Below the pieces are notes generated by a model that was given only the letters and a program-made list of their open reading frames with translations, was not told the origin of the DNA and ran no database searches. Below are positions 4,352-36,329 of a DNA stretch of 64,000 bases, piece by piece. The stretch spans positions 19,017 through 83,016 of the forward strand of contig JAFTKM010000008.1 of NCBI GenBank assembly GCA_017453245.1, in the 5' to 3' direction. The DNA is from Clostridia bacterium (GTDB lineage Bacteria; Bacillota; Clostridia; Oscillospirales; CAG-272). The position numbers and the translations under genes were made by a program. The first letter of the stretch is position 1, and every line of letters begins with the position of its first letter.

Positions 4352-4354
4352 ATA

Positions 4355-5443: not shown

Positions 5444-5458
5444 TAAACGGAGTTAATA

Positions 5459-6481: not shown

Positions 6482-6518
6482 CAACAATTATTTGCAAATA
6501 CCCCTTATAGGAGTAGAT

Positions 6519-7610: not shown

Positions 7611-7611
7611 G

Positions 7612-8850: not shown

Positions 8851-9281
8851 AGAAGCTATATTACATAATCAACGGACCTAACTTAAATATGCTCGGCATA
8901 AGAGAGCCTGAGCACTACGGAAAAGAGAGCTACAAGGCACTCGTCAAAAGCGTAAAGGATACCGCAAAGGAGCTCGGTGTACGTATTAAGCTCTACCAGT
9001 CAAATCACGAGGGAGACCTTGTCGACAAGATTCAAGAGGCATACTTCAAGGGCGCCACGGGAATAGTCATAAATCCCGGAGCTTACACCCATACGAGCGT
9101 TGCTCTGCTTGACGCGGTAAAGTCAACAAGGCTCCCTACTGTCGAGGTGCATATCTCTAAGGTTGAGGAGCGCGAGGACTTCAGGCAGATAAGCTATATA
9201 AGTCTTGCCGCCGAGAAAAGAATTACCGGACGCGGAATTGCCGGCTACTCGGAAGCGCTCAGATATCTAGCTTCTAAATAA
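8847..9281 (+). CDS. aroQ: Type II 3-dehydroquinate dehydratase
   Basis: 144 aa. Motifs INGPNLNMLGIREPEHYG, QSNHEGDLVD, INPGAYTHTSVAL. Confidence 0.9.
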   Translation: MKKLYYIINGPNLNMLGIREPEHYGKESYKALVKSVKDTAKELGVRIKLYQSNHEGDLVDKIQEAYFKGATGIVINPGAYTHTSVALLDAVKSTRLPTVEVHISKVEEREDFRQISYISLAAEKRITGRGIAGYSEALRYLASK

Positions 9282-9351
9282 GCTTTTTGACTACTTTTAT
9301 TTTCAATATAGGCTTTATATACCTCACCAAGAACACTAAAAGGAAAACATA

Positions 9352-10566: not shown

Positions 10567-11419
10567 CAAAAATACAAAGATACTGATAATAGGTCTTGGC
10601 GTTATAGGAGGCGGATACGCCTCGGCGCTGACCGAAAAGGGATATAACGTCTCTTGCATCACTAAGGAGCAAAAGGATATCGATTACGCTCTAGAAAGAG
10701 GTATGATAAAACACGGCACGACAAAGGTCGACCCCGAGCTTATCGGCGAGGCTGAGCTTGTTATCTTTGCCCTCTATCCTACCGTCTTTATCGAGTGGAT
10801 CGAAAAATACCAAAGGTATTTTAAACCGGGCACACTTATCACCGACGTGACCGGTGTCAAGGAAAGCGTTGTCGGCACTGTGCAATCGATGTTAAGAGAT
10901 GACGTCGAGTTCATCCCGGCGCACCCGATGGCGGGACGTGAGAGAAGCGGCGTTGAATACTCTGACCCGCAGGTTTTTAAGGGCGCAAACTACATAGTCA
11001 CCCCCACGAAGAAGAATACGGCTGAGGCTATTGAGCTCTGCAAGAGCCTTGGTGAAATACTCGGCTTTGCGAGAATAAGCGTGCTATCCCCCGAGGAGCA
11101 CGACGAAATGATCGCCTTCCTCTCCCAGCTAACGCACTGCATAGCAGTTGCGCTGATGACCTGCAACGAGGCGGAGGGACTTGAAAAATATACGGGAGAC
11201 TCCTTCCGTGACCTCACAAGAATCGCGAAGATAAACGATGCGATGTGGAGCGAGCTTTTCCTTATGAACAAGGACGCGCTCATTAAGGAAATGGACGCTT
11301 TTGTCGGCGAGGTCGAAAAAATGAAGAGAATGCTCATCTCGGGTGACCGCGAGGGACTCAGAGCCCTGATGCAAAGGTCGACCGAAAGGCGCTCACTCTT
11401 CGACAAACCGACTGTGTAA
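10556..11419 (+). CDS. tyrA: Prephenate dehydrogenase
   Basis: MKLDKNTKILIIGLGVIGGGYA (Rossmann fold) and HPMAGRERSG. ATG at 10556 overlaps the aroA stop. Confidence 0.85.
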   Translation: MKLDKNTKILIIGLGVIGGGYASALTEKGYNVSCITKEQKDIDYALERGMIKHGTTKVDPELIGEAELVIFALYPTVFIEWIEKYQRYFKPGTLITDVTGVKESVVGTVQSMLRDDVEFIPAHPMAGRERSGVEYSDPQVFKGANYIVTPTKKNTAEAIELCKSLGEILGFARISVLSPEEHDEMIAFLSQLTHCIAVALMTCNEAEGLEKYTGDSFRDLTRIAKINDAMWSELFLMNKDALIKEMDAFVGEVEKMKRMLISGDREGLRALMQRSTERRSLFDKPTV

Positions 11420-11480
11420 TGTCGGAAAATGTAAGAAAACAAAGAATTTGTATTATGATTGTACCGAAAGGACGGTAAAA

Positions 11481-12518
11481 ATGGAAAAGAATTTAACCTT
11501 CTACAGAAAGCTGCCTATACCGAAGGAAATTAAGGCAGAATTCCCTATCTCAAAGGAGCTCGCCGAGTTAAGACAGAGACAGCTCGACGAAATGAGAGAC
11601 ATCTTCGAGGGCAGGTCGCAAAGGCTCCTGCTCATCATAGGTCCCTGCTCCGCGGACGCAGAGAAGCCTGTGCTCGATTATATCTCGCGTCTAAGAAAGG
11701 TCCAGGACGACGTTAAGGAAAAGATAATGATCGTGCCGAGAGTATACACCAACAAGCCGAGAACAACCGGCGAGGGCTACAAGGGTATGCTCCATCAGCC
11801 CAATCCCAATGCCGCGCCCGACCTGCTCAAGGGTATAGTCGCGATAAGACAGCTCCATCTCAAGACTCTCGCGGAGACCGGCTTCTGCCCCGCTGACGAG
11901 ATGCTCTATCCCGAGAATTACAGATACCTCTCGGATATACTCGGCTACGTTGCCATCGGCGCGCGCTCATCGGAAAACCAGCAGCACAGACTCGTCTCCA
12001 GCGGCATCGACGTGCCCGTAGGTATGAAGAATCCGACCGGCGGAGATATATCGGTAATGATGAATTCCATAAAGGCGGCTCAGTCGGGCCACACCTTCCT
12101 TTACAGAGGCTGGGAGGTCGAGAGCAAGGGCAATCCTCTCTGCCACGCCATACTCCGCGGCTACGTCGACAAGCGCGGTCAGTCGCACCCCAACTATCAC
12201 TTCGAGGACCTGTACTCTCTTTGGGAGACGTATCAGGCATCGGGACTCAAGAATCCCGCGGTAATAGTTGACACCAACCACTCAAACTCCGGCAAGAAAT
12301 ACCTCGAGCAGCCGAGAATCGCGAAGGAGATACTCCACAGCGCAAGATATTCTCCCGAGGTGCGCTCGCTCGTCAAGGGACTTATGATCGAGAGCTATAT
12401 TGAGGACGGCTCGCAGAAGATTTCCGACTGCGAGGTATACGGAAAATCCATCACAGACCCCTGCCTCGGCTGGGATAAGACGGAAAAGCTCATCTACGAC
12501 CTCGCGGACGTGCTTTAA
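11481..12518 (+). CDS. aroG: 3-deoxy-7-phosphoheptulonate (DAHP) synthase, class I
   Basis: Motifs IIGPCS, VYTNKPRTTGEGYKGM, GMKNPTGGD, DTNHSNS. I prefer the start MEKNLTFY at 11481 over 11448. Confidence 0.85.
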   Translation: MEKNLTFYRKLPIPKEIKAEFPISKELAELRQRQLDEMRDIFEGRSQRLLLIIGPCSADAEKPVLDYISRLRKVQDDVKEKIMIVPRVYTNKPRTTGEGYKGMLHQPNPNAAPDLLKGIVAIRQLHLKTLAETGFCPADEMLYPENYRYLSDILGYVAIGARSSENQQHRLVSSGIDVPVGMKNPTGGDISVMMNSIKAAQSGHTFLYRGWEVESKGNPLCHAILRGYVDKRGQSHPNYHFEDLYSLWETYQASGLKNPAVIVDTNHSNSGKKYLEQPRIAKEILHSARYSPEVRSLVKGLMIESYIEDGSQKISDCEVYGKSITDPCLGWDKTEKLIYDLADVL

Positions 12519-12760: not shown

Positions 12761-15700
12761 ATGAACTTCAAAAAACTGATATCGTTTCTCCTTTGTCTTA
12801 TTCTCACTCTCAGCTGCGTGCTTCCGCTAGTCAGCTGCGGAGGTAAGGATAACGGCGGGGATGATGACGATGGCAAGACACCCGGCGGCAGTGTCGTCGG
12901 AGGCGGTAACGGAGGCACCACGGAAAACGGTGAAACCGAATATACCGTCAAGGTAGTAACCGTAGGCGGAATGCCTCTTGAGGGCGTTATGGTATACATC
13001 CATAACGGTGAAGCATACAGCGTATGCACCGCGCCTCAGGAGACTGACAAGGACGGTATCGCAAAATTCAAGCTCAAGACGTCTAACGACTACTCCGTAC
13101 AGATCGACGGCGCGCCTAACGGCTACAACGTAAAGGAAGGCCTTACCAAGGATGACAGATATCCTCTCACGGCGCCCGACACGCTCATTACCCTTTCCTC
13201 CGCACCTATCACAAGCGGCGGCTTCAAGAGCTCTTACGATATTGGTGACGTTATGTACGACTTCACCCTTACCGACATCAACGGCGACACGTACAAGCTC
13301 TCCGAGATGCTCAAGACCAAGGATATGGTAATGCTCAACTTCTGGTACGTAGGTTGCTCGAACTGCTACTATGAGTTCCCCTATATCAACAACGTATACA
13401 AGAATTACATGGACGATATTGAGATCCTTGCGATCAACGACTATACGACCGATACCAAGCAGGACGTGATCGACTATCCCGAATATCTCGGCGAGGAGCT
13501 CGCAATGCCCCTGTTTAAGGTCGGCAACACCGCGAACGATCTCACCCTCTCCAAGTTCCCGAGTGAGGGTTATCCCACCACCGTTATTATCGACAGATAC
13601 GGTGTTATCTGCATGATCGAGGTCGGCGCAGTTCTCGGCGACTCCAAGTGGAAGAACATATTCGATCACTTTGTAGGCGATGACTACAAGCAGACTCTCA
13701 TCACAGACAACTCCATCCTCAATCCTCAGCTCGAGCCCACCGTTAAGTGGGATGACGATTCCGCCGAGGAAATTGCAAATGCGTTTAACAGCGGTGATAT
13801 CACCGTAAGCTATCATCCCGAGACAAACGAGAAGGACGCTAAGTACGCCTGGCCCTTCATCGTGGACACATATAACGGTGAAACAGTCGTACGCCCCTCC
13901 AACAACGGCGTTGACAACTCCTTCGCAATTCTTTACGCTGACGTACAGCTCAAGCCCGGTCAGGCAATTATGTTCGACTGGTTTGCTTCGACTCAGAATA
14001 ACGAGATGGGTACGGACGTGCTCTACATTCTCGTTGACGGCAAGGATATCTACTCTATATCCGGTATCAGCGAGGACGGCTACGAGATCTGCTGTACCTA
14101 CGTTGACCCCCGTCCCGTAACCGAGACTAACAAGGACGACGTCGCTACCTATGAGGTTGCGTTCGCGTACTATAAGGACACGGTTGAATCCGAGGGCGAC
14201 GACACCGTTTACCTCAAGAATCTCAGAGTTGTCGGAGTTGACGAGATTCCCGTTGAGACCTACATCTTCCGCTATGCGGCAACAGATCTTAACGAGACCG
14301 GTGACGGCTACAACACCTACGTTACCGTACATCTCGGTGCTGACGGCTACTACCACGTAGGCTCTGTGGACGGACCTCTCCTTCTTGCAAACCACTTAAG
14401 CTACACTCAGTTTGACTCCGAAAAGACCGTATCCGAGAGAGTTTACGCTAACTACTCACTTATGGTTAACGGAGTAAACAAGTTCCAGAACTGGGTAACC
14501 TACGGCAACGCCGCATCCAACTCCCAGATGTACTACTACACCCCCGTAACCGAGGAGCTCCGCGAGATGCTTATGGCATACTGCGAGGAGCACAGACGTG
14601 AGGTTGGTAAATCTGCGAGCGAGAACCTCTGGCTCCAGCTCTGCGTTTACTATGACGCATACGGAGTTGACGAGGATGGCAACCCCGCAGAGCACCTTCC
14701 CGACCCCATTCAGGGTCTTACCTCCTTCTCCGCATTCGAGGTGGAGATCACAAACGATAATCCTACTACTCAGGGCGACGTTGTCGCAAGCGCTGAGGTC
14801 ACCTACAACAGAGTAATTATGCCCCGTGGCTACCTCTACAAGTTCGTACCCACCAAGTCCGGCGTATACCGCATCACCTCTAAGAGTGAGCAGGAGGTAA
14901 ACGGCTGGATCTTCACCGGTAACAACGATGAGTGGGTAAAGAACGAGGGTGACAGAACCATTCTTACAAGCGATTCTGTCGCAGAGCGTATAACCGACGA
15001 TCTCCTTATTGAGAATGAGGACGGCACTATGGCCTTCGACCGTACCAACGTATCTCTTGTTGCGTATATGGAAGCGGGCGAGGCATACTACATCGACATC
15101 GCGTACTATGACGTATACGCGGTAGGCACCTTTACCTTTGACGTTAAGTGGATCGGCGAAAGCTTCGGACACTTCATCCAGGCATCTCCCGGACCTATCA
15201 CCTATATCGAGTCTGTAAACGGCGGTATGGGCCAGCTTATCGCAGGCGGTATCGACGTTGACTTCAAGACTGTGGACGGCGTTGAATACGCATATCAGGT
15301 TCTCGAAAGAGACGAGAACGGAAACGTTACAAAGTGGGGCGAGAAGATCTATGCAGACTTCTACTATCCCACCACACTCTTCCCCTCGCAGTCCATCGAG
15401 GCGCTCCTCAAGGCTAACGCCTTCAACTACACCATCACCGAGCTTGACAGAGAGGCTCTTATACTTCTCGACGGTGTAAGAGTTGACGGTAAGGCAGCTC
15501 TCATCGATAAGTGGATCAAGGAAGAAACCGTAGCCGACAAGGATGCGGCAGAGGCTAAGTGGGCAGAGCTCGGACTTGACGATATCGTTAAGGACGGACT
15601 CGACGGCACATATGACGGCACCTACACCGACGAGGCACTCGCACTCGCTGATTACGTAATTGCAGAGGGTACGTACGAGCTCAAGGCCGAGTGGGGCAAG

Positions 15701-16315
15701 GAGCTTCTCAGCAGCTACGTATGGGATCAGTACGAGATGGATAGCGTTATCCGCGGAGCCTTCAGCGCTGACGAGACAACGGCTGCAAAGCAGGCGGAAT
15801 ACCTCGAAAATGTAAACAATAACTTTACAGAAGCGTGGAATTACTACCAGATGGACGATGTCAAGCGCGGCATCTTCCACAACCACGATAACAGAACCGA
15901 CAAGGATATGAAGGCTCTCGAGTATCTCGAGATCTACAACGCAGACGGCAAGGAAGCTCTTAAGGCTTACTGGGATTCTGAGTTCAGCTCTATCCTTCCC
16001 GGCGAGGACGATGACGTAACCGATATTTCCGAGTGGAGATATAACTACTTCTGGAATTATTATAAGATGGATGACGTTATCGCAGGTATCTATCACGGCA
16101 AGGTTGCAGACTATACCGACGAGATGCTCGCGTATGTCGAAAAAATGGAAAATGACGTCGCTAATAATCCCGAGCGTCAGGGATGCGTTGCGGTAACAAG
16201 AGAGCTTGCTGAGATTCTCGATACTCTCATCGCAAGAGAGGTATTTGAGGACGTACAGAACGGTTGGCTCAAGTTCTGCTTCTACTACGATATGCTCGGC
16301 ACGTATGCTGAGTAA
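12761..16315 (+). CDS. Large surface lipoprotein (1184 aa): prealbumin/CarboxypepD_reg-like Ig domain, TlpA/redoxin-like thioredoxin-fold domain (CSNC), then a long uncharacterised region with C-terminal W-x-YY-x-MDDV repeats
   Basis: Lipoprotein signal LILTLSCVLPLVSCGG. YTVKVVTVGGMPLEGVMVYI...DKDGIAKFKL. Redoxin motif VMLNFWYVGCSNCYYEFPYI, with CSNC at nt 13355-13366. Three repeats: VWDQYEMDSVIRGAF, AWNYYQMDDVKRGIF, FWNYYKMDDVIAGIY. Confidence 0.8.
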   Translation: MNFKKLISFLLCLILTLSCVLPLVSCGGKDNGGDDDDGKTPGGSVVGGGNGGTTENGETEYTVKVVTVGGMPLEGVMVYIHNGEAYSVCTAPQETDKDGIAKFKLKTSNDYSVQIDGAPNGYNVKEGLTKDDRYPLTAPDTLITLSSAPITSGGFKSSYDIGDVMYDFTLTDINGDTYKLSEMLKTKDMVMLNFWYVGCSNCYYEFPYINNVYKNYMDDIEILAINDYTTDTKQDVIDYPEYLGEELAMPLFKVGNTANDLTLSKFPSEGYPTTVIIDRYGVICMIEVGAVLGDSKWKNIFDHFVGDDYKQTLITDNSILNPQLEPTVKWDDDSAEEIANAFNSGDITVSYHPETNEKDAKYAWPFIVDTYNGETVVRPSNNGVDNSFAILYADVQLKPGQAIMFDWFASTQNNEMGTDVLYILVDGKDIYSISGISEDGYEICCTYVDPRPVTETNKDDVATYEVAFAYYKDTVESEGDDTVYLKNLRVVGVDEIPVETYIFRYAATDLNETGDGYNTYVTVHLGADGYYHVGSVDGPLLLANHLSYTQFDSEKTVSERVYANYSLMVNGVNKFQNWVTYGNAASNSQMYYYTPVTEELREMLMAYCEEHRREVGKSASENLWLQLCVYYDAYGVDEDGNPAEHLPDPIQGLTSFSAFEVEITNDNPTTQGDVVASAEVTYNRVIMPRGYLYKFVPTKSGVYRITSKSEQEVNGWIFTGNNDEWVKNEGDRTILTSDSVAERITDDLLIENEDGTMAFDRTNVSLVAYMEAGEAYYIDIAYYDVYAVGTFTFDVKWIGESFGHFIQASPGPITYIESVNGGMGQLIAGGIDVDFKTVDGVEYAYQVLERDENGNVTKWGEKIYADFYYPTTLFPSQSIEALLKANAFNYTITELDREALILLDGVRVDGKAALIDKWIKEETVADKDAAEAKWAELGLDDIVKDGLDGTYDGTYTDEALALADYVIAEGTYELKAEWGKELLSSYVWDQYEMDSVIRGAFSADETTAAKQAEYLENVNNNFTEAWNYYQMDDVKRGIFHNHDNRTDKDMKALEYLEIYNADGKEALKAYWDSEFSSILPGEDDDVTDISEWRYNYFWNYYKMDDVIAGIYHGKVADYTDEMLAYVEKMENDVANNPERQGCVAVTRELAEILDTLIAREVFEDVQNGWLKFCFYYDMLGTYAE

Positions 16316-16329: not shown

Positions 16330-17019
16330 ATGACCTTTAAGAAATTTATTTCACTCATTCTCGTATGCTTTATGCTTATGGCGGTGCTTTCACTCACCGC
16401 CTGCGGCGGCAACGATGACAACAAGGATAACGAAAACACCAATGAAGGTGGCGAAAACAATACCACCGACAAGACCTACGCTGTTACGGTTCTTGATGAG
16501 GACGGTGCTCCCATTGAGGGCGTTAAGCTGGTTATCACAGACGGTACAACCTACCCCACCGCAACAACCGATGCAAGCGGTAAGGCGAGCGTTCAGCTCC
16601 CCGAGGGAACTATCAGCGTAATGATCACAACTGTTCCCGACGGCTATCTCAAGCCCGAGAAGGTATCCGGTGGTGTATACCACGGCGTATTTGCAAGCGG
16701 CACAAACGAGCTTGCAATCACACTTGAGAAGGATGTTGTTATTGATACCAAGGTAGAATATACCGTTAAGGTTGTCGATACATCCGGCAATCCTGTGGTT
16801 GGAATGAAGGTTCAGGTTTGTCCCGGAGGGGTTTGTTTGCCTGATGACTTCTATACCGATGAAAACGGTGAGATAAAGGCAATGATTACTCCCGGAACGG
16901 AAGTAAAAATACAACTTATCGAACTCGACGGATACAACCTTCCCACTACCGTTGACGGTACTTATCACGCTATAATACCGGTAGGCGAAACCGAAATAAC
17001 AATAGATACCGTTACATAG
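16330..17019 (+). CDS. Lipoprotein with two prealbumin-like (CarboxypepD_reg / SdrD-B-like) domains
   Basis: Signal plus lipobox MAVLSLTACGG. YAVTVLDEDGAPIEGVKLVI...DASGKASVQL and YTVKVVDTSGNPVVGMKVQV...DENGEIKAMI. GGAGG RBS. Confidence 0.8.
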   Translation: MTFKKFISLILVCFMLMAVLSLTACGGNDDNKDNENTNEGGENNTTDKTYAVTVLDEDGAPIEGVKLVITDGTTYPTATTDASGKASVQLPEGTISVMITTVPDGYLKPEKVSGGVYHGVFASGTNELAITLEKDVVIDTKVEYTVKVVDTSGNPVVGMKVQVCPGGVCLPDDFYTDENGEIKAMITPGTEVKIQLIELDGYNLPTTVDGTYHAIIPVGETEITIDTVT

Positions 17020-17036: not shown

Positions 17037-17072
17037 AGCGCCCCGAGGACGATGCCTCGGGGCGCTTTTTTA
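17037..17072 (+). terminator. Intrinsic terminator
   Basis: AGCGCCCCGAGG / CCTCGGGGCGCT is a perfect 12-bp stem, followed by TTTTTTATTTT. Confidence 0.8.
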
Positions 17073-17124: not shown

Positions 17125-18675
17125 TTACTGTGCGTTTGACATAGCCGCCATAACGAGAATCAAAAGAGTATCGTAGTCAAGCTCTGTCTGCTGAAGCGAG
17201 TATATCTCGCCGTTCGGGTCTACAACAATAGTTATAGGATAGGTTCCCGTACCGCCGAGGGTGGTATAAAGGTATTCGCCCGAGGTGGTGTCTCCATCCT
17301 TTATAAGACGGTCAACACCAAAGAGGATCTTGCTCTGTGGGAAATTCTCCTCGATATACTCGTCGGACTCCTCCATCTGGTCGAAGGTATGTATCGCAAT
17401 AACGTCAACCTCACCGTAGAAGTCGGTTGCTATCTGGTCAAAATAAGGAAGCTCCTTGATGCAACCGGGACACCAAACACCCCAGAAATTGATGATGGTA
17501 ACCTTGCCCTTGTTATCCGTGGGATCAAAGCTTTCGGTGTATTCTCCCTCGCCGTTGTAGATGGGAATATCAAGGCTCGGACACGCGTCACCCTCGCCGT
17601 AGATCTTGAGCGTGTCATCAATAGGTTTATCGATGAAATTATAGTAAACAAGCGCGCTCACAAGAAGCGACACCATAAGAACTGCGGCAACAATTTTAGT
17701 AATTAAGCGGCGTTTTGCTAACTTTCGATTACTTTTTGCGGTGTTTTCAAGACACACCTCGCGTTCTTCATCGGACATATCTGAAGTCACGAGCGCGATC
17801 TCGTCGGGAGGTAAAATGACCTTACCGCCGCGCCAGGAGATAGCCTTGGTGGGGCAAACGCCGACACACTCACCGCAGTTGATACACTCGTGGTCACCGA
17901 CCTCGCGTATATCCATTTTACACTTTGAAATACAGAGTCCGCAATCGATGCACTTCGGCTTCTCAAGCTTGATGCCGAGGATGGCAAACTTGTTGAAAAG
18001 ACCGTAAAGAGCGCCGAGGGGACAGATAAATCTGCAGAACACTCTGAAGATGAATACAGAGCCTACGATCACGCTGACTGCGAGCGCAAACTTCCAGGTA
18101 AAGAGCGGACCGAGTCTTGCAAGCTCGCCCTCGTTTACCTTGTTTGAGAGCAGACCGAAGGCGCCCTCAATGGTGCCTGCGGGACAAACGTACTTGCAGA
18201 AGCCGGGGAGCGGCACGTTGCGCAGACCGTAAAGCACCGGCACGATAACAACTAAGAATACGAGAAGCACGTACTTGAAGTATGAGAGTATTCTCGTGAA
18301 GCGGTTTTTCTTAAGCTTCGGTGTCTTTATCTTGTAAAGCAGCTCCTGAATAAGTCCGAAGGGACAGAGGAAGCCGCAGATGAGTCTGCCAAGAAGGATA
18401 CTGTAAAGAAGGATTATGCCGACAACGTAGTACGGTGTTCTCTTCTCTGACGCGCCGAGCGCATTCTGAAGCGAGCCGAGAGGACAAGCTCCCGACGCTC
18501 CCGGGCAGGAATAGCAGTTAAGTCCCGGGGTGCATATATTTTTGAGCGGGCCCTGATATATTTTTCCGTTAGCGAAGCCCTTCAGATTGGCGTTAAAAAG
18601 CAACGCCGAATAGAGCTGAATAAGCTTACGCTTAGTAGGTACAAGGCTCTTAAGTTTAGTTACAAATTTACTCAT
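17125..18675 (-). CDS. Membrane polyferredoxin (NapH/MauN/COG0348-like, 2x[4Fe-4S]) fused through a TM helix to a C-terminal TlpA-like thioredoxin domain (CPGC)
   Basis: CYSCPGASGACPLG and FLCPFG / FICPLG TM-associated motifs. CIDCGLCISKC and CINCGECVGVCP ferredoxin motifs (nt ~17836-17955). TM helix ITKIVAAVLMVSLLVSALVYY. VTIINFWGVWCPGCIKELPYF, with CPGC at nt 17461-17472. Confidence 0.85.
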   Translation of the reverse strand: MSKFVTKLKSLVPTKRKLIQLYSALLFNANLKGFANGKIYQGPLKNICTPGLNCYSCPGASGACPLGSLQNALGASEKRTPYYVVGIILLYSILLGRLICGFLCPFGLIQELLYKIKTPKLKKNRFTRILSYFKYVLLVFLVVIVPVLYGLRNVPLPGFCKYVCPAGTIEGAFGLLSNKVNEGELARLGPLFTWKFALAVSVIVGSVFIFRVFCRFICPLGALYGLFNKFAILGIKLEKPKCIDCGLCISKCKMDIREVGDHECINCGECVGVCPTKAISWRGGKVILPPDEIALVTSDMSDEEREVCLENTAKSNRKLAKRRLITKIVAAVLMVSLLVSALVYYNFIDKPIDDTLKIYGEGDACPSLDIPIYNGEGEYTESFDPTDNKGKVTIINFWGVWCPGCIKELPYFDQIATDFYGEVDVIAIHTFDQMEESDEYIEENFPQSKILFGVDRLIKDGDTTSGEYLYTTLGGTGTYPITIVVDPNGEIYSLQQTELDYDTLLILVMAAMSNAQ

Positions 18676-18679
18676 ATCT

Positions 18680-19507
18680 TTATCCTAAGCCTATACATTC
18701 TGTGCAAATTTTGATTGCCTTGTTAAGCACGTCTGCCATACCGCCGTTGGTTATTCCCATAACAATGAAAGCAACCGCGCATCCAACGAGAGCAATTCTG
18801 ACTCCGAGGACTATCGGCTTCTCGTTTTTCTTAAGGTAATCCGCCGCTTTGCATATCACACAGCTATGCGAGCTCTCCCGAGTCTCGCAGATTCCCGAGG
18901 ACGCGAGAGCCTCCTTCAAGAGTGCGTGCTCTCTTTTAAGCGAGAGGTCGCGAAGGATAACGTAGACCACCTCGTAAACGAACAAAGGAGCCAAAAATGC
19001 GAGGTATACCAGCATACCGTGTAAAATTTCAGCGTTATATTCACCGCTCACCGCGGGGAAGTTGGCAGGGTTGAGGAGGAAGATAAGAGGAAGGACAGCG
19101 CTAAGAGTGATGAGGGTGAGTCTGACGTATCCGAGGATACTGCGCAGTTTTCTTTCCTTCACTATTTTTTCTGCCGTTTGCCCGTCCGCGCCGGAAAGGT
19201 CTACCCTTTCGGAAAGCTTCTTGACAAGCACGGTGAGTGAGCGCGCGCCCTTAAGCTTCTCCCCTTCGGTAGGCAAGGCAATCGATACGCCAACGCCGAC
19301 GATAACAAGAGAGACGGTGATATACACCCACACCGCAATTTTCGAAAACGCCCGAGCTATGCTCTCTCTTGTAAACGGGCTCTGCCCGCTCTTATAGATT
19401 GAATAGCAGGAGGTTATAAACAGGATACCCACAAGCACAAGCATAGCCGACATCAGTATGCCGAAGCCGAGGTGTATCCGCTTTTTGCTTTTTTCGGTCA
19501 GTTTCAC
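18680..19507 (-). CDS. Polytopic membrane protein (275 aa) with C-terminal CxxC pairs; translationally adjacent to the polyferredoxin-TlpA gene (4-nt gap)
   Basis: Several hydrophobic helices. GICETRESSHSCVICK (CVIC at nt 18851-18862) and KICTECIGLG at the C-terminus (CTEC at nt 18695-18706). I recognise no family. Confidence 0.65.
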   Translation of the reverse strand: MKLTEKSKKRIHLGFGILMSAMLVLVGILFITSCYSIYKSGQSPFTRESIARAFSKIAVWVYITVSLVIVGVGVSIALPTEGEKLKGARSLTVLVKKLSERVDLSGADGQTAEKIVKERKLRSILGYVRLTLITLSAVLPLIFLLNPANFPAVSGEYNAEILHGMLVYLAFLAPLFVYEVVYVILRDLSLKREHALLKEALASSGICETRESSHSCVICKAADYLKKNEKPIVLGVRIALVGCAVAFIVMGITNGGMADVLNKAIKICTECIGLG

Positions 19508-19599
19508 TTTTGATTTCCTTTCAAGTGAATTTCGTTTCTACCCTTCAGTATACCACAAGAATATCCGAAAGTCAATAGCTGGTGAAGGTGTCGGGGGGG

Positions 19600-19705: not shown

Positions 19706-22700
19706 TTATTCGACTATTTCCGAGGTGTAAACGAAGTAAACGTTTCCGTAGGTAAATTCTTCTGTGGGATTGCCGTCGTAGTCGTTTACCGAATCAACGT
19801 TATAGCTTTGAACGTACTCGTTATAGTCCTCTACCGTGTAGCAGGTTGAGATGCTGCCCCAAGGATCAAGCACGACGATGCGTATATCCTCCGCGGTCAT
19901 CTTGTAGCATTCCTGGAACCACATTCCCTCAAAACAGAAGTCACCGGCATTTATAGCAAAAGACATACCGCTAAGCGATACCTCATATTCGAGGTCGGTG
20001 TGCTTTTCGAACAAGCCGCCGGAGTAGATATTGTAGAAGCTGAGAGTGTTCTCGTCGATTCTGATGACTTGATTATCGGTTAAGTAAAGTCCGCACAGAC
20101 GGTCGAAATCTACCTCGAATTTCGCGTTGAGAGATACCGCGGTAAGCTTGAGCGCGAAGAGATCTTCTACCGAGTTTATGGTAATTGCTCCGTCCTCGGA
20201 CCTATATTCCCACTCGCCCGAGAAGTACATTATTCCGTAGGTAAAGTCGGTATACTGTGAATCGAGCTCGGGTGTGCTCCATTCGCCATCACGCGTATAA
20301 ACGTAAGGGCTTTCGTAATCGCCGACGAGCCCTACCTCGGTGTAGAAGAATACCTTGACCTCGTTGAAGGCGGAGACGTATATGTAGCACGAGTTGCCCT
20401 CTGTCGCAACCTCTGCGTCGGGATCGGTTACAGTAGATCCGTCAACGTTCCACGTATATCCGTCAAGGTCAAGCTCGAGCCCGTGCTCTTCGTTAACGAG
20501 AGCTATCACCTCGGCAAGAGTTAGATTCGCAGTGTGATAGATTTTGTAATCGTTTCCGTTCGTGTGTACCGCTACGCAAGGACGGTTATCGGTGCCCCAC
20601 AGCTCGAGGGATGCGTAGGGTACGTAATCCTTAGAGAAGCCGTCTATGTACTCGTATGAGTTGTAGTTCCAATCGTAATTGTCAAACTCAAGGCCGAAGT
20701 AGATCGTAAGAATTTCACCGACTGTAAGACCGTCGTTCTTATTGACGAACTTTTCTCCGTAATAGTTCTCCGTGCTTACGCTCATGCGGAAGGTCTGACA
20801 TATACCGATAATTTTATACGAAGTATAGCTGCGGTCGTAATCCGTCTCGCTGAAGGCGGGATCATAATAGAGCGTGATATCGAGGCTTTCTATTTCCTCA
20901 CAGCTTCCGTCGGGATAGTACAGAGTCCAGACGTACACGCCCTCGGTGGGATATCCGAATTGTGCGAGATCGAAGCAGATATCGCCTGTGAACTCTTCGG
21001 TGTATTCGTATCCGTTCTCGTCGAAAACGGAAACGGTAACGCGCACCTGATTAGGCGTGAAGAAAACGCTGAAGGCGCGGAACTCAAAGCACGTGCCAAC
21101 GAAGGTGTCGTAATCGTACTGCATTCCTTCGACGTTGATGGTGTACATAGTGAGATCCGCATCGATGAACTCGGCTATTTGAGCTCCGTTAGGAACACTG
21201 TCAAATACGAGTGCTTCGTAAATGTAATTTCCCGTGATCGAATCATATAACTCAACGTAAGCTACGTAGCAGGGAATGATCTCAACGGTGCAGTCCTTGT
21301 AAATGAAGCCGTACCATGATTCCAATTCGGGATGATAATCCGTATTTCCAACTCTGTAAAGATACTCGGGAGAGTAGCCGGGAAGAGAGAAATATCCTTC
21401 GTCTTCGGTATATACGTCTTGATAAGCGAAGTATTCGATCGAGGTCGGCGAGGTGAGAGTAATCGTTCCTTCGAGCGTCGTGTACTCATCCATTACGTAG
21501 ATGACGTTTACCGTGATCTCCTCTTCAACCTCGGATTTTTCAATGAGGAAAAGAGTTGAATAGCTTGTCGTGTTAAGATCCTCGATGACCGAGCCGTAGT
21601 TAAATATTACGTAATCGTCGACATTGATTCCGATACCGCCTAAAAATTCCGCAACGCTGGGGAACTGTGTAGCAGAGTATACCTCGGATGCAAGCATCTT
21701 GGTGCCGCTATCGGTAACAAGATATGCACTTGCGTGCTTTTGACATTCAATGTAAGATACGTTGATCTCACCGTAAGCTAAACTGTCAATAGTGCTGTTA
21801 TTGTCAACTATAGTGTATATATTGCTGTCTATTGCGTGCTTAACGTAGAATTCGTCTACGAGCTCGTAATAGGAAACTGGGCAGGGGAAGCTATGAACCT
21901 CCTCGATGCCGAGAGAGGGAATGCTTATGGTAACGGTAGAGCTGAAGTCCTCGGGATGTCCCTTCTGTATAGCAACGAGCTTGTCGTCTACACGTATAAG
22001 ATAATCCTCGGTGAGCTCCTCGCCGTTTGCATACCATACGTAATTTGATTCGCCAAGAGTTGTTCCGTATCTTTCCGAAAGGAGGTTCGCGAGAGTATTA
22101 CGCTTTTCCGTGATACCGCCGGTATACATATCACCCTTGTCGTAATTGACTGTTGCTTCGTAATATCCGCTTTCGTCGTAGGTGTAGTATTCGAAGAGAT
22201 AGATAAGGAAGTACACGTACTCGGGATAGTAATCAGGATTGGATTCGCTGCATCTGTTGCAGTAGCCCTCACTGTTGTAGTCGTGACCGTAGGCGTATTC
22301 ACCTATGATCTTACACAGCTCGCAGTAGCCGTCCTCGGTACAGGTGGGATCTGCCCACACGTGCTCGCATTCGGTGGAGTAGTCGGGATCGGGATCGCCG
22401 CAGTTTACGCAAGAGCCGTCAATATACTGGTGTCCGTAAGCAGCGACAAGGATAGTTCCGCACGCGTAGCATACGCTGTCCTCGGTACAGGTCGCTTCGG
22501 TACGGTTTTCGTGGTAGCAGTAATCGGGATCTACGACCTCACCGAAGTAGCCTGAGCAGTGGATGCAGTAGCCCGCGTCGTCAAGCTCGTGATCGCCGAG
22601 ACCGGTGTTCTCGTAGTAGCGATCACCGCACTCTGTGCAGGTGTAGTAAATAATACCTTCCGTGATGCAGGTAGCATCTTCGACCTTCATCTCGTAGTTG

Positions 22701-23665
22701 TGCTTGCACTCGACGTCATCGGGCGTGTAGTCAGGGTCAGCCTCGCCGCAGTTTACGCAGTAGCCGTCAGAATAGCTGTGTCCCTTTGCGCTCTCGCCGG
22801 GCTCTTCACAGAGCTCGCAGTAGCCGTCCTCGGTACAGGTGGGATCTGTCCACACGTGCTCGCACTCGGGAACAAAGTCGGGATCGGGCTCGCCGCAGTT
22901 TACGCAGTAGCCGTCAGAATAGCTGTGTCCCTTTGCGCTCTCACCGGGAGCTTTACAGAGCTCACAGTAGCCGTCCTCGGTACAGGTGGGATCTGTCCAC
23001 ACGTGCTCGCACTCGGGAACAAAGTCGGGATCGGGCTCGCCGCAGTTTACACAGTAGCCGTCAGAATAGCTGTGCCCCTTTGCGCTCTCACCGAGAGCTT
23101 TACAGAGCTCGCAGTAGCCGTCCTCGGTACAGGTGGGATCTACCCACACGTGCTCGCAGCCGGGTGTGAAGTCGGGATCGAGCTCACCGCAGTTTACGCA
23201 ATAGCCGTCAGCATAGCTGTGTCCGTTAGCTGTGCCACGTGTAGCGGAGCAGTTACGGCAGGTCTCGGGAGTTGTGCATCCTGCCTTCTGCCAGGTGTGT
23301 CCCATCGCCTCACCGTATGTAAAGCTTTCGGTATCAGCCTCACCGCACTCGCAGGAATAGTAGTATTCCGCAGCAGAGGTACAGGTAGCCGAGCTCTTGA
23401 GATATTTGTCGCTCGCTACCTCCTCGGAGTAATCGTGAGTATGTGAATCGGTCGGCTTGTCGTCCGGTTTTTCTCCGGAATCGTCGCCGGGCTTATCTCC
23501 CGTATCATCCCCAGGTGTGTCATCGGTGTTGTCGGGGTTTTCGTCATTTCCGCCGTTAAGAATTTGACCGATATTAAGGTTTCCGTTTTCATCGCAGGAA
23601 GCGAAGGTGAAAACAAGGCTTAATACCATAACGGAAATAAGCAAAAGGTAGAGTAACTTTTTCAT
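19706..23665 (-). CDS. Large secreted lipoprotein (1319 aa) with ~7 Cys-rich (CxxC-containing) 49-aa modules in the N-terminal third and an uncharacterised C-terminal region
   Basis: Signal plus lipobox VLSLVFTFASCDENG and an acidic linker. Repeated module GHSYSDGYCVNCGEPDPDFVPECEHVWTDPTCTEDGYCELCKAPGESAK. Confidence 0.85.
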   Translation of the reverse strand: MKKLLYLLLISVMVLSLVFTFASCDENGNLNIGQILNGGNDENPDNTDDTPGDDTGDKPGDDSGEKPDDKPTDSHTHDYSEEVASDKYLKSSATCTSAAEYYYSCECGEADTESFTYGEAMGHTWQKAGCTTPETCRNCSATRGTANGHSYADGYCVNCGELDPDFTPGCEHVWVDPTCTEDGYCELCKALGESAKGHSYSDGYCVNCGEPDPDFVPECEHVWTDPTCTEDGYCELCKAPGESAKGHSYSDGYCVNCGEPDPDFVPECEHVWTDPTCTEDGYCELCEEPGESAKGHSYSDGYCVNCGEADPDYTPDDVECKHNYEMKVEDATCITEGIIYYTCTECGDRYYENTGLGDHELDDAGYCIHCSGYFGEVVDPDYCYHENRTEATCTEDSVCYACGTILVAAYGHQYIDGSCVNCGDPDPDYSTECEHVWADPTCTEDGYCELCKIIGEYAYGHDYNSEGYCNRCSESNPDYYPEYVYFLIYLFEYYTYDESGYYEATVNYDKGDMYTGGITEKRNTLANLLSERYGTTLGESNYVWYANGEELTEDYLIRVDDKLVAIQKGHPEDFSSTVTISIPSLGIEEVHSFPCPVSYYELVDEFYVKHAIDSNIYTIVDNNSTIDSLAYGEINVSYIECQKHASAYLVTDSGTKMLASEVYSATQFPSVAEFLGGIGINVDDYVIFNYGSVIEDLNTTSYSTLFLIEKSEVEEEITVNVIYVMDEYTTLEGTITLTSPTSIEYFAYQDVYTEDEGYFSLPGYSPEYLYRVGNTDYHPELESWYGFIYKDCTVEIIPCYVAYVELYDSITGNYIYEALVFDSVPNGAQIAEFIDADLTMYTINVEGMQYDYDTFVGTCFEFRAFSVFFTPNQVRVTVSVFDENGYEYTEEFTGDICFDLAQFGYPTEGVYVWTLYYPDGSCEEIESLDITLYYDPAFSETDYDRSYTSYKIIGICQTFRMSVSTENYYGEKFVNKNDGLTVGEILTIYFGLEFDNYDWNYNSYEYIDGFSKDYVPYASLELWGTDNRPCVAVHTNGNDYKIYHTANLTLAEVIALVNEEHGLELDLDGYTWNVDGSTVTDPDAEVATEGNSCYIYVSAFNEVKVFFYTEVGLVGDYESPYVYTRDGEWSTPELDSQYTDFTYGIMYFSGEWEYRSEDGAITINSVEDLFALKLTAVSLNAKFEVDFDRLCGLYLTDNQVIRIDENTLSFYNIYSGGLFEKHTDLEYEVSLSGMSFAINAGDFCFEGMWFQECYKMTAEDIRIVVLDPWGSISTCYTVEDYNEYVQSYNVDSVNDYDGNPTEEFTYGNVYFVYTSEIVE
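22735..23224 (-). repeat. In-gene tandem repeat, 147-nt period, ~3.3 near-identical copies (Cys-rich modules)
   Basis: The aa 148-310 modules are nearly identical. The antisense ORF 22786..23169 shows the same 49-codon periodicity (SSRPRYRWDLSTRARTREQSRDRARRSL...). Confidence 0.85.
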
Positions 23666-24008: not shown

Positions 24009-24037
24009 TTGAATTTTTGTCAATGTTGTGTTAAAAT
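24009..24037 (+). promoter_or_regulatory. Candidate promoter of the giant protease gene
   Basis: TTGAAT (24009-24014), 17-nt spacer, TGtTAAAAT (-10 at 24032-24037). This implies the ORF-track start at 24009 is not used. Confidence 0.45.
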
Positions 24038-24104
24038 AGTTAAGCGCGTTTTTACGTACGCGTGTATACATATGATTAATAAAAGAAAGGCAAAACCGAA
24101 AAAA

Positions 24105-27100
24105 ATGAAGAAGAAATCATTCACAAGGGTTTCATCAAGAATCCTGATGGCTCTTCTTGCGGTGGCTATGGTCTTCACCTTTGCCGCTTCTACCCTCGGG
24201 ACTACGGTCGCGGCGGACGGAGGCGTGTTCAAGAAGAACGATTCCATCTACACCGACTACAAGAGCTATCTCGACGGCTCGGTGGTACAGGCTCTGCCTG
24301 CCACGGTCGACAAAAATGAAACCATCTCGGTGATAGTCAAGCTTGACACACCGACTCTTATGGATGCGTACAACAAGACGGACAAGGCAATGTCCTTCGG
24401 TGAGTACGTAATGACAGAAGAGGCACAGAAGATCAAAGCCGATATTCAGGCCGAGAAGGAGGAATACCTCATCGCTCTTACAAGAAGCGGTATTCCCTAC
24501 GAGGTAGGCTGTGACTACGCGAATATCCTCGCGGGCTTTGAGGTACTCTACACTGCAAAGAACTTTGAAAACGCCTGCAAGTATCTCCCCACCGACGCAA
24601 CAGCGATCATCGGTGAGGTATACAAGGTGGCAGAAACCCAGCTCGTCGAGAATAAGATCGACGTATACGAGGAGACCGGAATCTTCGATAGCTCGGATTT
24701 CACCATTAACGGCGAAAAGTACTCGGGCAGCGGTATGGTAGTTGCGGTCCTTGACACGGGACTTGACTACACCCACCCCGCATTTGACCCCGCAAGACTC
24801 AACTCGAACAGACTCGGCCTTACCAAGAGCGAGGTTGAGAGCCACGTAGCCAACACCGTGGCGGCATCGAGAGTCCCCGGTCTTACCGCTGACGACGTAT
24901 ACATAAACGAGAAGGTTCCCTTCGCGTTCGACTACGCGGACAACGACTCCGACGTGTACTCGCTCCACAATAACCACGGTACTCACGTATCCGGCGTTAT
25001 CGTAGGTCACGACGACACCATCATCGGCGTTGCGCCCGACGCTCAGCTCGTATCGATGAAGATATTCTCCGACGTTCAGGATTCCGCAAGAGCCTCCTGG
25101 ATACTCGCGGCTCTGGAGGACTGCGTCGAGCTCGGAGTTGACGTAATCAACATGTCGCTCGGTACCGCCTGCGGCTTCAGCCGTGAGACGGACGAGGAGC
25201 AGATGTCCGGAGTATACGACGACATAAGAGCTCTCGGTATCAGCCTTGTAGTTGCGGCTTCCAACAGCTTCAACTCGGCGTACGGCTCGGAGAAGAACGG
25301 TAACCTCGGTCTTACCTCCAATCCCGATACCTCAACGGTAGGCTCTCCCTCCACCTATGACGGCGCGCTCTCCGTTGCGTCTATCAACGGTGTAAAGACT
25401 CCCTACATCCTTGACTCCAAGGGCACTATTATCTACTTCGTTGAGTCCTCTGACAGCGCGGGTGAGGAGAAGAACTTCTTTACCGAGCTGCTCGGCTCGG
25501 AGCTCAGCGAAACAGAGCTTGAATACGTGCTTATCCCCGGTGTAGGTAACCCCTCCGACTACGACGGCATCGACGTTATGGGTAAGATAGCCCTCGTACG
25601 CAGAGGCTCCAACACCTTCGAGGAAAAGGCAAAGGCGGCAGAGGCGGCAGGCGCAAAGGCGCTTATCGTATATAACAACACCTCGGGTGACATCAGAATG
25701 AACGTGGGAATCGTGTCTATCCCCGTCTGCTCTGTCAGCCAGGACGACGGTGAGATGCTCGCCGCCGCAAAGAACGGTACTCTCAAGATCAGCAAGTCGC
25801 AGACCTCCGGTCCCTTCATGTCCGACTTCTCCTCCTGGGGTCCCTCTCCCTCCCTCCAGATCAAGCCCGAGATCACCGCTCACGGCGGTAACATTCTCTC
25901 GGCTGTAACAGGCCACGGATACGACAGACTTTCCGGTACGTCGATGGCTTGTCCCAATATGGCGGGCGCGATCGCGCTTATGCGTCAGTACGTTATCACC
26001 AATTTCGAGTCAAAGATCAAGAACGAGAGCGGTGTTATCGACTACGTGGAGGTCAATTCCATTGTAAACAGACTTCTTATGTCCACTGCGGACATAGTCA
26101 ATAATAAGAACGGTCTTCCCTACGCGGTAAGAAAGCAGGGCGCAGGTCTTGCCAACCTCGGCGATGCTATCACTACCGGCGCTTATATACTCACCTATGA
26201 CAGACTCGACGGCTCGGTAATGGATAAGTCCAAGATCGAGCTCGGCGATGACCCGAACAAGACGGGTGTATATACTCTTAAGTTCACGATAGACAATTTC
26301 GGTAAATCTGCACTTTCATATGATATATCAGCAAACGTTATGACCGAGGGTGTCAGCGAGACACCCACCTATCAGGGCGAAACCGTTGTTTCCGAGGAGG
26401 GCTACCTTCTTTCGGGCGCGCGTGTTGAGATCACCTCCACCAAGGGCGGAGCGATAAGCGGCAACACCGTGACCGTAGAGGCGGGAGCAAGGTGCGACGT
26501 CGTTATCACCGTCACTCTCGGCGAGGATGATAAGGCGTACCTCGATTTTTCCTTCGAAAACGGTATGTACATAGAGGGCTTTGTAACCCTCACAGCCAAG
26601 GACGAGGGCTCTACCGACCTGAACGTGCCTTACCTTGCCTTCTACGGCAACTGGTATCAGGCTCCCCTCTTCGACCTTGACTACTTCGAGACCAACGCGG
26701 ACGAGCTCGACGACTCTCTCGCAACTCTCGATAAGACTCTTCCCGACGCTTACGCTACACGTCCTATCGGCGGTATCTCCGGTGACTACGTAAGCTATCT
26801 CGGCTCCTACTACTTCTTACAGAATCCCAAGAACAAGATAATCTCCGCATCGAGAGACTATATCGCGCTTTCCAACAATGACGGAACGATCCGCTCGCTT
26901 CGTTTTGTCTGGGGAGGTATGCTCCGTAACTCGGAGAGAATAGTTATCACGATAACCGACGACGCGACCGGCGAGGTTATTTTTGAGAAGGTGGAGACCT
27001 CCATCCGTAAGTCCTACGGTGACGGAGGCTCATACATCTACCCCGCAAATATCGAGATCGAGTTCGATACCGCGGACTACAACCTCAAGAATAACGCGAC

Positions 27101-36320: not shown

Positions 36321-36329
36321 GGAGGACTT

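Follow-up and report, generated by a model that had tools for sequence, protein, structure and literature searches.

A 64,000-nucleotide stretch of DNA from a Clostridia bacterium (contig JAFTKM010000008.1, positions 19,017 to 83,016; "the window", numbered here from its first nucleotide) carries on its minus strand, at 17125-18675, a gene that joins two kinds of redox protein. From N- to C-terminus, its 516-amino-acid (aa) product consists of a NapH-like membrane module, a predicted cytoplasmic ferredoxin domain with motifs for two [4Fe-4S] clusters, an extra transmembrane (TM) helix, and a thioredoxin (Trx) domain of the TlpA/ResA type. We propose that low-potential electrons from the cytoplasm may pass through the membrane module to reduce the Trx domain on the cell surface, in place of CcdA or DsbD. 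Judging from sequence comparisons, we give this reading a probability of about 0.6.

A fusion gene and its upstream partner

The fusion gene and the gene that precedes it make up a two-gene operon, bracketed by a promoter-like site and a stem-loop. The features are as follows:

17971..18675, minus strand: NapH-like membrane module, aa 1-235 of the fusion (two Fer4_5 matches, invariant cysteines, AlphaFold2)
17806..17970, minus strand: predicted cytoplasmic ferredoxin domain, aa 236-290 (Fer4, Fer4_7, Fer4_9, Fer4_10, Fer4_18; eight invariant cysteines)
17641..17805, minus strand: basic/acidic linker and fifth TM helix (aa ~322-345), predicted to take the chain back to the outside (hydropathy, AlphaFold2, parity of TM helices)
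17128..17640, minus strand: predicted extracytoplasmic TlpA/ResA-type Trx domain, aa 346-516 (Pfam, PDB sequence matches, Foldseek)
18680..19507, minus strand: partner membrane protein of 275 aa that starts with GTG (five TM helices predicted, from an inner N-terminus to an outer C-terminal tail)
18683..18793, minus strand: CD1871A-family module of the partner, aa 239-275, made of the last TM helix and the tail NGGMADVLNKAIKICTECIGLG before the stop codon (NF040920)
19547..19575, minus strand: promoter-like site, TTGACT and a TG-extended TATACT with a 17-nt spacer (consensus match only, 10/12)
17037..17066, no strand: G+C-rich stem-loop of 12 pairs where the fusion gene and lipoprotein gene 16330-17019 converge, a likely two-way terminator

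The promoter-like site lies ~40 nt upstream of the GTG codon of the partner, and AAAGGAAA is found 7 nt before that codon, at 19507.

The open reading frame (ORF) of the fusion is uninterrupted. Gene calls on four public contigs (ruminant-gut 'Clostridia bacterium' metagenome-assembled genome, MAG) include exactly this protein, and more than 200 homologues with the same architecture are found in uncultured gut and rumen Clostridia. For these reasons, an assembly artefact was rejected as the source of the fusion. Two Fer4_5 matches (E = 2.8e-20; 72.4 bits against a cut-off of 22) assign the N-terminal part to the NapH-like superfamily PF12801. Fer4 matches at aa 263-280, likewise over its gathering threshold, with additional matches to the related families listed above, while AhpC-TSA (aa 363-491, E = 1.3e-10, 41.8 bits against 26) and Redoxin (32 bits against 26.6) together cover aa 363-496. 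The intact ORF and these domain matches bear out the original prediction, made from the nucleotide sequence, that a NapH-type membrane iron-sulfur (Fe-S) module is fused to a TlpA-like Trx domain. The additional TM helix that it placed after a linker is also present, at ~325-343.

All the N-terminal motifs quoted in that prediction can be found: CYSCPGASGACPLG at aa 54-67, FLCPFG at 102-107 and FICPLG at 216-221. The active-site motif FWGVWCPGCIKELP occupies aa 397-410. Two details had to be corrected. One is the description of CYSCPGASGACPLG as a hallmark of NapH, as Escherichia coli NapH has no cysteines there. The other concerns the two ferredoxin motifs, which were both said to end in CP: the second one does, but the first is CxxCxxCxxxCK.

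The partner gene lies 5' of the fusion gene on the same strand, and four nucleotides (AGAT) separate its stop codon from the ATG of the fusion. The 4-nt gap had been predicted correctly, as had the presence of CVIC (aa 216-219) and CTEC (aa 268-271) in the partner; to this it must be added that the partner is the upstream gene, and that CVIC is not conserved among partner homologues (n = 35). In that alignment only the last ~22 residues are invariant (NGGMxDVLxKAxxICxECIGLG-stop). Residues K, A, C, E, C, G and G at positions -13, -12, -8, -6, -5, -3 and -1 from the end are kept in the 35 aligned partners and in 80 tails. The segment formed by aa 239-275 matches NCBIfam NF040920 ('CD1871A family CXXC motif-containing protein') with 39.1 bits against a cut-off of 32. 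This model has 38 positions and CD1871A proteins are ~40-60 aa long, so that the 275-aa partner is not itself a small protein of ~40 aa: its N-terminal 230 aa, with four extra TM helices, are a lineage-specific extension.

Partner lengths vary from 56 to ~360 aa across related loci. The shortest ones (56-86 aa) are made of a basic N-terminus, a single TM helix and the tail, and the tail is therefore predicted to share the outer side of the membrane with the loop cysteines and the Trx domain. Of 82 related loci, an adjacency script detected 76 in which an ORF ending in the tail motif immediately precedes the fusion gene. Four of the remaining six also have one and had been missed by the pattern used for the fusion ORF, which brings the set to 80 tail ORFs from 82 loci. 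A search for natural proteins that combine the CxEC tail and the polyferredoxin in one chain found none: the N-terminal extensions of P0256, P0258, P0265 and others lack the motif, and those of P0021 and P0024 are unrelated to the tail. The 502 partner homologues include none with a name and none with a Pfam match. Literature searches found no published function for the CD1871A family, and mentions of C. difficile 'CD1871' refer to a conjugative-transposon region or an ABC (ATP-binding cassette) permease, not to function.

Cysteines, predicted topology and the thioredoxin domain

The membrane module has four TM helices, at ~15-36, 80-95, 133-151 and 179-208. Its cysteines fall into two inner CX3CP motifs (C100/C104 and C214/C218), a predicted outer loop 1 (C48, C54, C57 and C64) and a predicted outer loop 2 (C160 and C164). 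The ferredoxin domain contributes eight more, in two [4Fe-4S] motifs (C242, C245, C248, C252 and C264, C267, C270, C274). Together with C402 and C405 of the Trx domain, these amount to 20 cysteines that are invariant in 76 fusions. The ten cysteines of the membrane module are invariant or nearly so in the 76 fusions, in 28 stand-alone proteins and in a mixed set of 102 sequences, and the eight ferredoxin cysteines are invariant in all three sets. Stand-alone relatives (~275-310 aa) retain all 18 non-Trx cysteines.

When the fusion is aligned with E. coli NapH, the two CX3CP motifs and the eight ferredoxin cysteines find their counterparts. In contrast, none of the six loop cysteines does, and the loop-2 insert is missing from NapH. 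Hence, CYSCPGASGACPLG is a mark of the clostridial subfamily, and its predicted position is in an outer loop rather than on the cytoplasmic side. Loops 1 and 2 presumably correspond to the periplasmic loops of the published NapH topology. The layout of NapH is thus retained (four TM helices, two CX3CP motifs at their cytoplasmic ends, and a C-terminal domain with two [4Fe-4S] motifs), but scores against the specific families are far below cut-off: 72 bits against 213 for NapH/MauN TIGR02163, and 50.7 against 234 for NapH NF007013. No nap or mau genes were found among the window ORFs scanned or in related loci, and the operon has two genes only. More generally, NapH, NosR and PceC (RdhC) share a homologous four-helix core with two CX3CP motifs, to which NapH and NosR add a C-terminal domain with two [4Fe-4S] clusters. 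The fusion differs from them in having Trx as outer carrier, instead of a flavinylated FMN (flavin mononucleotide)-binding domain or NapG, six additional invariant cysteines in the outer loops, an obligatory subunit of CD1871A type, and no nap, nos or rdh context.

Hydropathy and charge counts, read against the E. coli NapH alignment, predict five TM helices with the N-terminus inside. Positive residues follow the expected distribution, with six lysines or arginines in the N-terminal 17 residues and seven in the loop after the first CX3CP motif, and the Trx domain holds 32 acidic residues against 8 lysines or arginines. We also counted the TM helices between ferredoxin and Trx domains in 220 fusions with a recognisable Trx motif. 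There is one in 213 of them, three in 2 and two in none; the other five scored zero, and at least one of these (L046) has a weakly hydrophobic helix under the threshold. As the number is odd in 215 of the 220 fusions, the Trx domain should lie outside, and this comparison of parity across fusions is a stronger test than any single topology prediction. Altogether, the Trx domain is predicted to face outside and the ferredoxin domain to be cytoplasmic. The original prediction of an outer Trx domain stands on the charge bias, on this parity and on the export signals of unfused Trx proteins described below.

A first AlphaFold2 run with 76 close homologues yielded values of the predicted local distance difference test (pLDDT) of 45-60 in the membrane part, was unusable, and was replaced by a run on residues 1-350 with the diverse, mixed alignment of 102 sequences. 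The resulting model (mean pLDDT 89.6; predicted template-modelling score 0.84) has the same four helices and a continuous helix at 302-348. When this membrane model was compared with the PDB using Foldseek, nothing was found below E = 0.29, and matches were confined to the ~60-aa ferredoxin sub-domain, with weak resemblance to polyferredoxin sub-domains. Likewise, a PDB sequence search with the fusion retrieved Trx and ferredoxin chains only, and no solved structure for the membrane module. The ten membrane cysteines and the two of the partner tail could provide room for up to three extra clusters, or for one inner cluster or dithiol together with outer dithiol pairs.

The topology admits a reading in terms of metal handling. 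CcoG (RdxA/FixG) is a cupric reductase with five TM helices, Fer4_5 and Fer4_18 motifs, and a C-terminal periplasmic domain. The fusion follows the same plan: a Fer4_5-type module, a cytoplasmic domain with two [4Fe-4S] motifs, and a fifth TM helix that leads to an extracytoplasmic domain at the C-terminus. If it were a CcoG-like metal reductase, the outer cysteines and the CxEC tail might bind metal, and the Trx domain might act as a metallochaperone of Sco type. Other observations that lean this way are the Fer4_18 match, a weak match to CcoG TIGR02745 that covers the extra TM helix (26.3 bits, aa 240-343), the abundance of cysteines on the outer face and in the tail, the invariant glutamate between the two tail cysteines, and a FeoB gene beside one unfused locus. 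However, the CcoG score is far under the cut-off of 316.7. In addition, Trx occupies the place of the CcoG periplasmic domain, and its active site is a classical WCxxC without the CxxxC-plus-His of Sco, with TlpA and ResA rather than Sco as relatives. The neighbourhood has no conserved gene for a metal transporter or cupro-enzyme, and the carriers are anaerobes without sign of a cbb3 oxidase. We therefore regard a metal-handling role as very improbable.

The Trx domain has an active site of sequence W-C402-P-G-C405. Both cysteines are invariant, as is P480, found at the position expected for the cis-proline. Its best PDB sequence matches are 2l5o and ResA 4nmu. Foldseek retrieves ResA, TlpA, CcmG, DsbE, DsbF and Etrx with E-values of 1e-8 to 1e-6 and target TM-scores (template modelling) of 0.77-0.87 for the ten best and 0.61-0.87 for the top 50, which identifies a TlpA-type fold; the pLDDT of the domain in AlphaFold2 is mostly 85-95. 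Scores against NCBIfam equivalogs are below cut-off in all cases: 47 against 170 for ResA, 40 against 210 for StoA, 29 against 230 for TlpA and 29 against 123 for DsbE. Family scores thus place the protein in the Fer4_5 and TlpA-like Trx superfamilies, but not among NapH, CcoG, ResA or DsbD-family proteins. Most neighbours of the Trx domain in sequence and fold are extracytoplasmic reductants, from which we infer that it is of reductant type. Among 225 fusions, the active sites are CGPC in 59, CPGC in 49, CGGC in 38, CTPC in 38 and CSGC in 20; CPHC is found in none. Some fusions carry two tandem Trx domains.

A peculiarity was detected in two Trx lipoprotein genes that are not fused to a polyferredoxin gene: the codon of the first active-site cysteine is an in-frame TGA. 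One of them belongs to a locus termed L083 (WATG-TGA-GAC) and the other to L118 (FWNNG*GTC), the metagenome contig OGXO01003615.1:

4326..4853 of Caminicella sporogenes CP126462: Trx gene of L083, annotated as two short ORFs, with in-frame TGA

Close homologues of the L118 protein (L098 and L111) have cysteine at the TGA position. An in-frame TGA at an active-site cysteine together with cysteine-containing close homologues, as in L118, is the usual signature of selenocysteine, and NCBIfam contains a 'ResA-like WAxxUGC' family. A hairpin resembling a selenocysteine insertion sequence was sought after the TGA of L083, and the fold found there is no better than that of shuffled sequence (z = -0.6). 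The L083 and L118 proteins are probably extracytoplasmic thioredoxins that contain selenocysteine.

Another possibility that has to be weighed is that the system oxidises rather than reduces. Bacterial VKOR-Trx fusions and the DsbB-DsbA pair have the same architecture, with a polytopic redox module linked by a TM helix to an outer Trx domain, to which loop cysteine pairs relay. The fusion could be their anaerobic counterpart, with Trx inserting disulfides into secreted Cys-rich proteins and the module carrying electrons inward to an acceptor in the cytoplasm. Strict anaerobes may have no oxidant linked to quinone or O2, and a Cys-rich lipoprotein of 1319 aa is encoded next door. Those oxidants, however, use quinone, whereas the fusion presents Fe-S motifs instead of a quinone site and a Trx domain of the TlpA reductant type, whose nearest relatives are mostly reductants. 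The predominance of CGPC, CPGC and CGGC and the absence of CPHC go in the same direction, and candidate selenocysteine variants suggest a nucleophilic, reducing role. Besides, [4Fe-4S] clusters of ferredoxin type normally lie far below thiol/disulfide potentials, so that inward flow would be uphill. As for the Cys-rich neighbour, it has a relative in just 1 of 81 related loci and is thus not a conserved operon partner. An oxidising role seems to us quite unlikely.

Unfused modules, family spread and genomic neighbourhood

Polyferredoxins that stand alone were examined in seven loci from different organisms. All seven encode a Trx protein, a mini-protein and the polyferredoxin on one strand, with flanking genes that differ and are unrelated from one locus to another. 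Cultured carriers of this unfused module are Caminicella sporogenes, Faecalispora jeddahensis, Oceanirhabdus seepicola and Clostridium sp. OS1-26. The Trx proteins are TlpA-like, with active sites WCGPC, FCGPC, FCSPC or TCKPC, or with TGA at the first cysteine. A lipobox or signal peptide is present in 7 of 7, which provides an independent signal that Trx lies outside. The mini-proteins (43-60 aa; 54-72 bits with NF040920) have one TM helix and a tail of the form ICxECIGxG-stop.

A metagenome scan seeded with stand-alone polyferredoxins gave 80 loci, partly redundant. In 75 of them the tail ORF is immediately upstream of the polyferredoxin gene. A TlpA-like gene on the same strand was detected by tblastn in 73, within ~340 nt in 71 cases: it is upstream across the mini-ORF in 24 and downstream in 49, with gaps of -16 to +276 nt in 47 of the latter. 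No Trx gene was detected in the other seven, four of which are cut short at the flanks. An earlier search for Trx genes by regular expression, superseded by tblastn, had found just 25 of 66.

Judged by these comparisons, mini-protein, polyferredoxin and Trx form a conserved three-gene module, parts of which have been joined in the fusion, and the predicted link of the Fe-S module with an outer Trx has far more behind it than a single fusion gene would provide. The order mini-protein, polyferredoxin, Trx lipoprotein, with overlapping stop and start codons, explains how the fusion could have originated, and the lipoprotein signal peptide would have become its fifth TM helix.

Three of the seven unfused modules (L086, L088 and L089) adjoin a two-component system with a HisKA kinase and an OmpR-type regulator. 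L088 also has genes for ABC and FtsX-type permeases, as in loci for sensing of or resistance to peptide antibiotics. Such neighbours might mean that the module acts against peptides with disulfides, or might be a coincidence.

The unfused arrangement invites comparison with the CcdA/DsbD/ScsB proteins. These do the job proposed here, to bring reducing equivalents across the membrane to Trx proteins of the TlpA/ResA/CcmG type; they occupy the same gene position beside a Trx-lipoprotein gene, and ScsB and DsbD also include fused Trx-like domains. In CcdA-dependent Firmicutes, ccdA lies beside the Trx-lipoprotein gene, an example being the ccdA1-etrx1-msrAB2 operon of S. pneumoniae. Genes for the polyferredoxin and the mini-protein hold that place in the unfused module. 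There is, however, no sequence relationship with the DsbD family, where a single membrane cysteine pair is fed by cytoplasmic thioredoxin: here we find a domain with two [4Fe-4S] motifs, a NapH-like fold, ten invariant membrane-associated cysteines and a separate CxEC-tailed subunit. Neither the fusion nor the partner matches PF02683 (DsbD/CcdA) at E <= 0.01.

Tight co-occurrence and fusion are also what one would expect of a client and its chaperone, and fit such a pair as well as they fit a donor and an acceptor. The Trx protein could serve maturation or maintenance: fed by a CcdA encoded elsewhere, it would keep the cysteines of the two outer loops (six in all) and of the partner CxEC reduced or correctly paired, and the complex of polyferredoxin and mini-protein might then do something else, for example export electrons to an outer acceptor. 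Proteins of the TlpA family are typically specific maturation reductants, the model cases being ResA for apocytochrome c and TlpA for Sco/CoxB, and the outer face of the module is unusually rich in cysteines. Several observations are nevertheless difficult to accommodate. A maturation factor that is permanently tethered, sometimes in two tandem copies, would be unusual. No outer acceptor or other redox enzyme is conserved beside the module in the related loci or in the seven unfused ones. Furthermore, no DsbD/CcdA Pfam match was found among ~40 ORFs scanned in the 64-kb window (the fusion, the partner and ~35 others), and the Pfam tables of called genes at the seven unfused loci contain no DsbD-family domain. 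We consider that a maturation role is unlikely.

Regarding the spread of the fusion, a word-indexed search returned 7954 matches. The 120 listed are 53-96% identical, all combine Fer4_5 and Redoxin, and they are named no more specifically than '4Fe-4S binding protein', 'redoxin family protein' or 'ferredoxin'. In the best 80 GTDB species genomes most or all of the fusion is covered, with the Trx domain in nearly all; these genomes are labelled as animal-gut MAGs of the class Clostridia except for two, which bear Alloprevotella and Fretibacterium labels. A HMMER search with residues 1-300 produced 439 cluster representatives at E <= 1e-30. Of 57 long ones, 39 carry Redoxin or AhpC-TSA, and none carries FMN_bind or Msr as fused outer domain. 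The long top matches P0390-P0395 were uninformative: P0390, P0391, P0393 and P0395 contain internal duplications of 80-120 of their own residues, and such duplicated polyferredoxins are probably metagenome assembly chimeras and not real domain repeats.

Several genes that surround the operon in the window deserve mention. Convergent with it is a gene for a second protein with a Trx-like domain:

12761..16315, plus strand: lipoprotein of 1184 aa with a TlpA-like domain at aa 161-290, CSNC (AhpC-TSA 38 bits, ResA 55 bits)

In at least 15 of 81 loci, the fusion gene has a neighbour related to this lipoprotein over its Trx region, and several of these relatives have WCGPC or WCSPC. The lipoprotein and its relatives are possible downstream redox partners or clients, outside the core operon. 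Both this protein and that encoded by 16330-17019, also on the plus strand, have Ig (immunoglobulin)-like N-terminal domains. A contiguous cluster for aromatic amino-acid biosynthesis (3155-12518, plus strand) lies directly upstream of these lipoprotein genes. It includes genes for an aminotransferase, chorismate mutase/prephenate dehydratase, DHQ (3-dehydroquinate) synthase, chorismate synthase, a shikimate dehydrogenase-kinase fusion, a putative EPSP (5-enolpyruvylshikimate-3-phosphate) synthase recognised from its sequence, prephenate dehydrogenase and DAHP (3-deoxy-D-arabino-heptulosonate-7-phosphate) synthase.

On the other side of the operon, 19706-23665 (minus strand) encodes the 1319-aa lipoprotein, which is extremely rich in cysteines and has no Pfam match. 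Its gene contains a tandem repeat at 22742-23224, with a unit of 147 bp (49 aa), 3.3 copies, 93% identity and ~7 cysteines per unit (GHSYSDGYCVNCGEPDPDFVPECEHVWTDPTCTEDGYCELC). Divergent from the operon is 24009-32384 (plus strand), the gene of a secreted S8 peptidase of 2791 aa with PA, fn3_5 and BspA-type LRR_5 repeats and a C-terminal TM segment. It is followed by five genes for an Opp-type oligopeptide ABC transporter (32398-40053, plus strand). Of 81 related loci, 27 have the peptidase gene beside the fusion operon. Further away, 50191-52456 (minus strand) holds a pair resembling NfnAB/glutamate synthase small subunit (Fer4_20 and Pyr_redox_2; DHODB_Fe-S_bind), whose presence suggests a fit with ferredoxin-based redox metabolism. 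A Mn-catalase gene is found at 57046-57594. The stretch at ~52000-56000 has a G+C content of 0.37-0.42, compared with ~0.50 elsewhere, and its ORFs mostly lack a Pfam match or encode DUF3885; it may be recently acquired DNA.

A proposed route for electrons to the cell surface

Our proposal builds on how the domains are arranged, which cysteines are invariant, on which side of the membrane the parts are predicted to lie, and how tightly their genes are coupled; the donor, the flow of electrons and its direction, the substrates and the cofactor content are inferred. The route that we envisage can be summarized as follows:

(i). A low-potential cytoplasmic donor, most likely reduced ferredoxin, would load the two [4Fe-4S] clusters.

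(ii). Electrons would then pass to the NapH-like four-helix module, with its inner CX3CP pair and its six outer-loop cysteines.

(iii). At this point one-electron carriers would have to deliver to a two-electron dithiol. This might occur as in ferredoxin-thioredoxin reductase (FTR), where a cluster sits beside a redox-active disulfide. Alternatively, electrons might run along several clusters to a terminal pair of cysteines.

(iv). The C-terminal CxEC of the partner, on the outer face, would either complete the outer site or shuttle the dithiol.

(v). The tethered TlpA-type Trx (CPGC) would be reduced in turn and would reduce surface or secreted clients, possibly including nearby Trx-fold lipoproteins.

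The parallel with FTR and with disulfide reductases of the HdrB/DsrK type is a chemical analogy only: in both, Fe-S chemistry turns a one-electron input of ferredoxin level into the reduction of a disulfide. There is no homology, and those enzymes are soluble or face the cytoplasm, whereas here the disulfide would lie across the membrane. No FTR family appears among the Pfam and NCBIfam matches of the fusion at E <= 0.01. With this analogy in mind we favour a hybrid scheme, in which an inner Fe-S input would be converted to dithiol chemistry within or across the membrane.

Some considerations weigh against the proposal. To our knowledge, there is no assembly route for Fe-S clusters on the outer face of a polytopic protein inserted by Sec, a reason why the outer cysteines are more likely to be dithiols. 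NapH itself is thought to use quinol. The ~15 distinct types of active site and arrangement among the redundant metagenome loci mean that co-occurrence counts overstate the number of independent events. Finally, NosR was found to hold only ~8 Fe per protein, and the authors of that work favour disulfide chemistry for the CX3CP motifs (PMC5928378), which may thus be dithiols and not cluster ligands. The original prediction had suggested a different route to extracytoplasmic Trx proteins, linked to Fe-S or quinol, as opposed to the known cysteine relays. Comparative evidence supports such a route; in view of the ten membrane cysteines, the two tail cysteines and the iron count of NosR, the contrast between an Fe-S route and a cysteine relay is probably too sharp.

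Literature searches on CD1871A, on PF12801/Fer4_5, on polyferredoxin combined with Trx, and on routes independent of DsbD or CcdA retrieved no description of the system. Meheust et al. 2021 (PMC8238504) proposed that NapH-like PF12801 proteins, which mostly carry a fused outer FMN-binding domain, are modular devices for transmembrane electron transfer; Trx fusions are not mentioned for them in that study. The words 'ferredoxin', 'iron-sulfur' and 'NapH' are likewise absent from the text of a 2026 review of disulphide maintenance systems. Both a cytoplasmic Trx domain and membership of an already characterised family were considered, and neither was found. What seems to be new is a putative NapH-like conduit with Trx as outer carrier or, seen from the other side, a putative envelope-reducing system whose membrane part does not resemble DsbD.

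A broader, tentative view, to which we assign slightly less than even odds, is that many Clostridia possess a third class of membrane reductant transporter. A NapH-like Fe-S protein fed by ferredoxin, assisted by a tiny CxEC-tailed subunit, would use FTR-like transmembrane chemistry to keep surface thioredoxins reduced, some of them with selenocysteine, instead of CcdA/DsbD or beside them.

The textbook bacterial routes that supply reducing power to the envelope all run, as far as we know, through cysteine relays of the DsbD/CcdA/ScsB type fed by cytoplasmic thioredoxin. If our reading is correct, a widespread and tightly conserved Fe-S-based alternative would change the picture of envelope reduction in strict anaerobes, including abundant gut and rumen Clostridia. 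Surface thiol chemistry, such as repair of oxidative damage, handling of host or microbial peptides with disulfides and protein maturation, would be tied to the low-potential ferredoxin pool. The system would also open a first way into the function of the large, enigmatic CX3CP/Fer4_5 family: Trx is a simple, assayable output, and the role of the CX3CP motifs common to NapH, NosR and RdhC would thus become testable. As the unfused version is present in cultured species, such experiments would be feasible.

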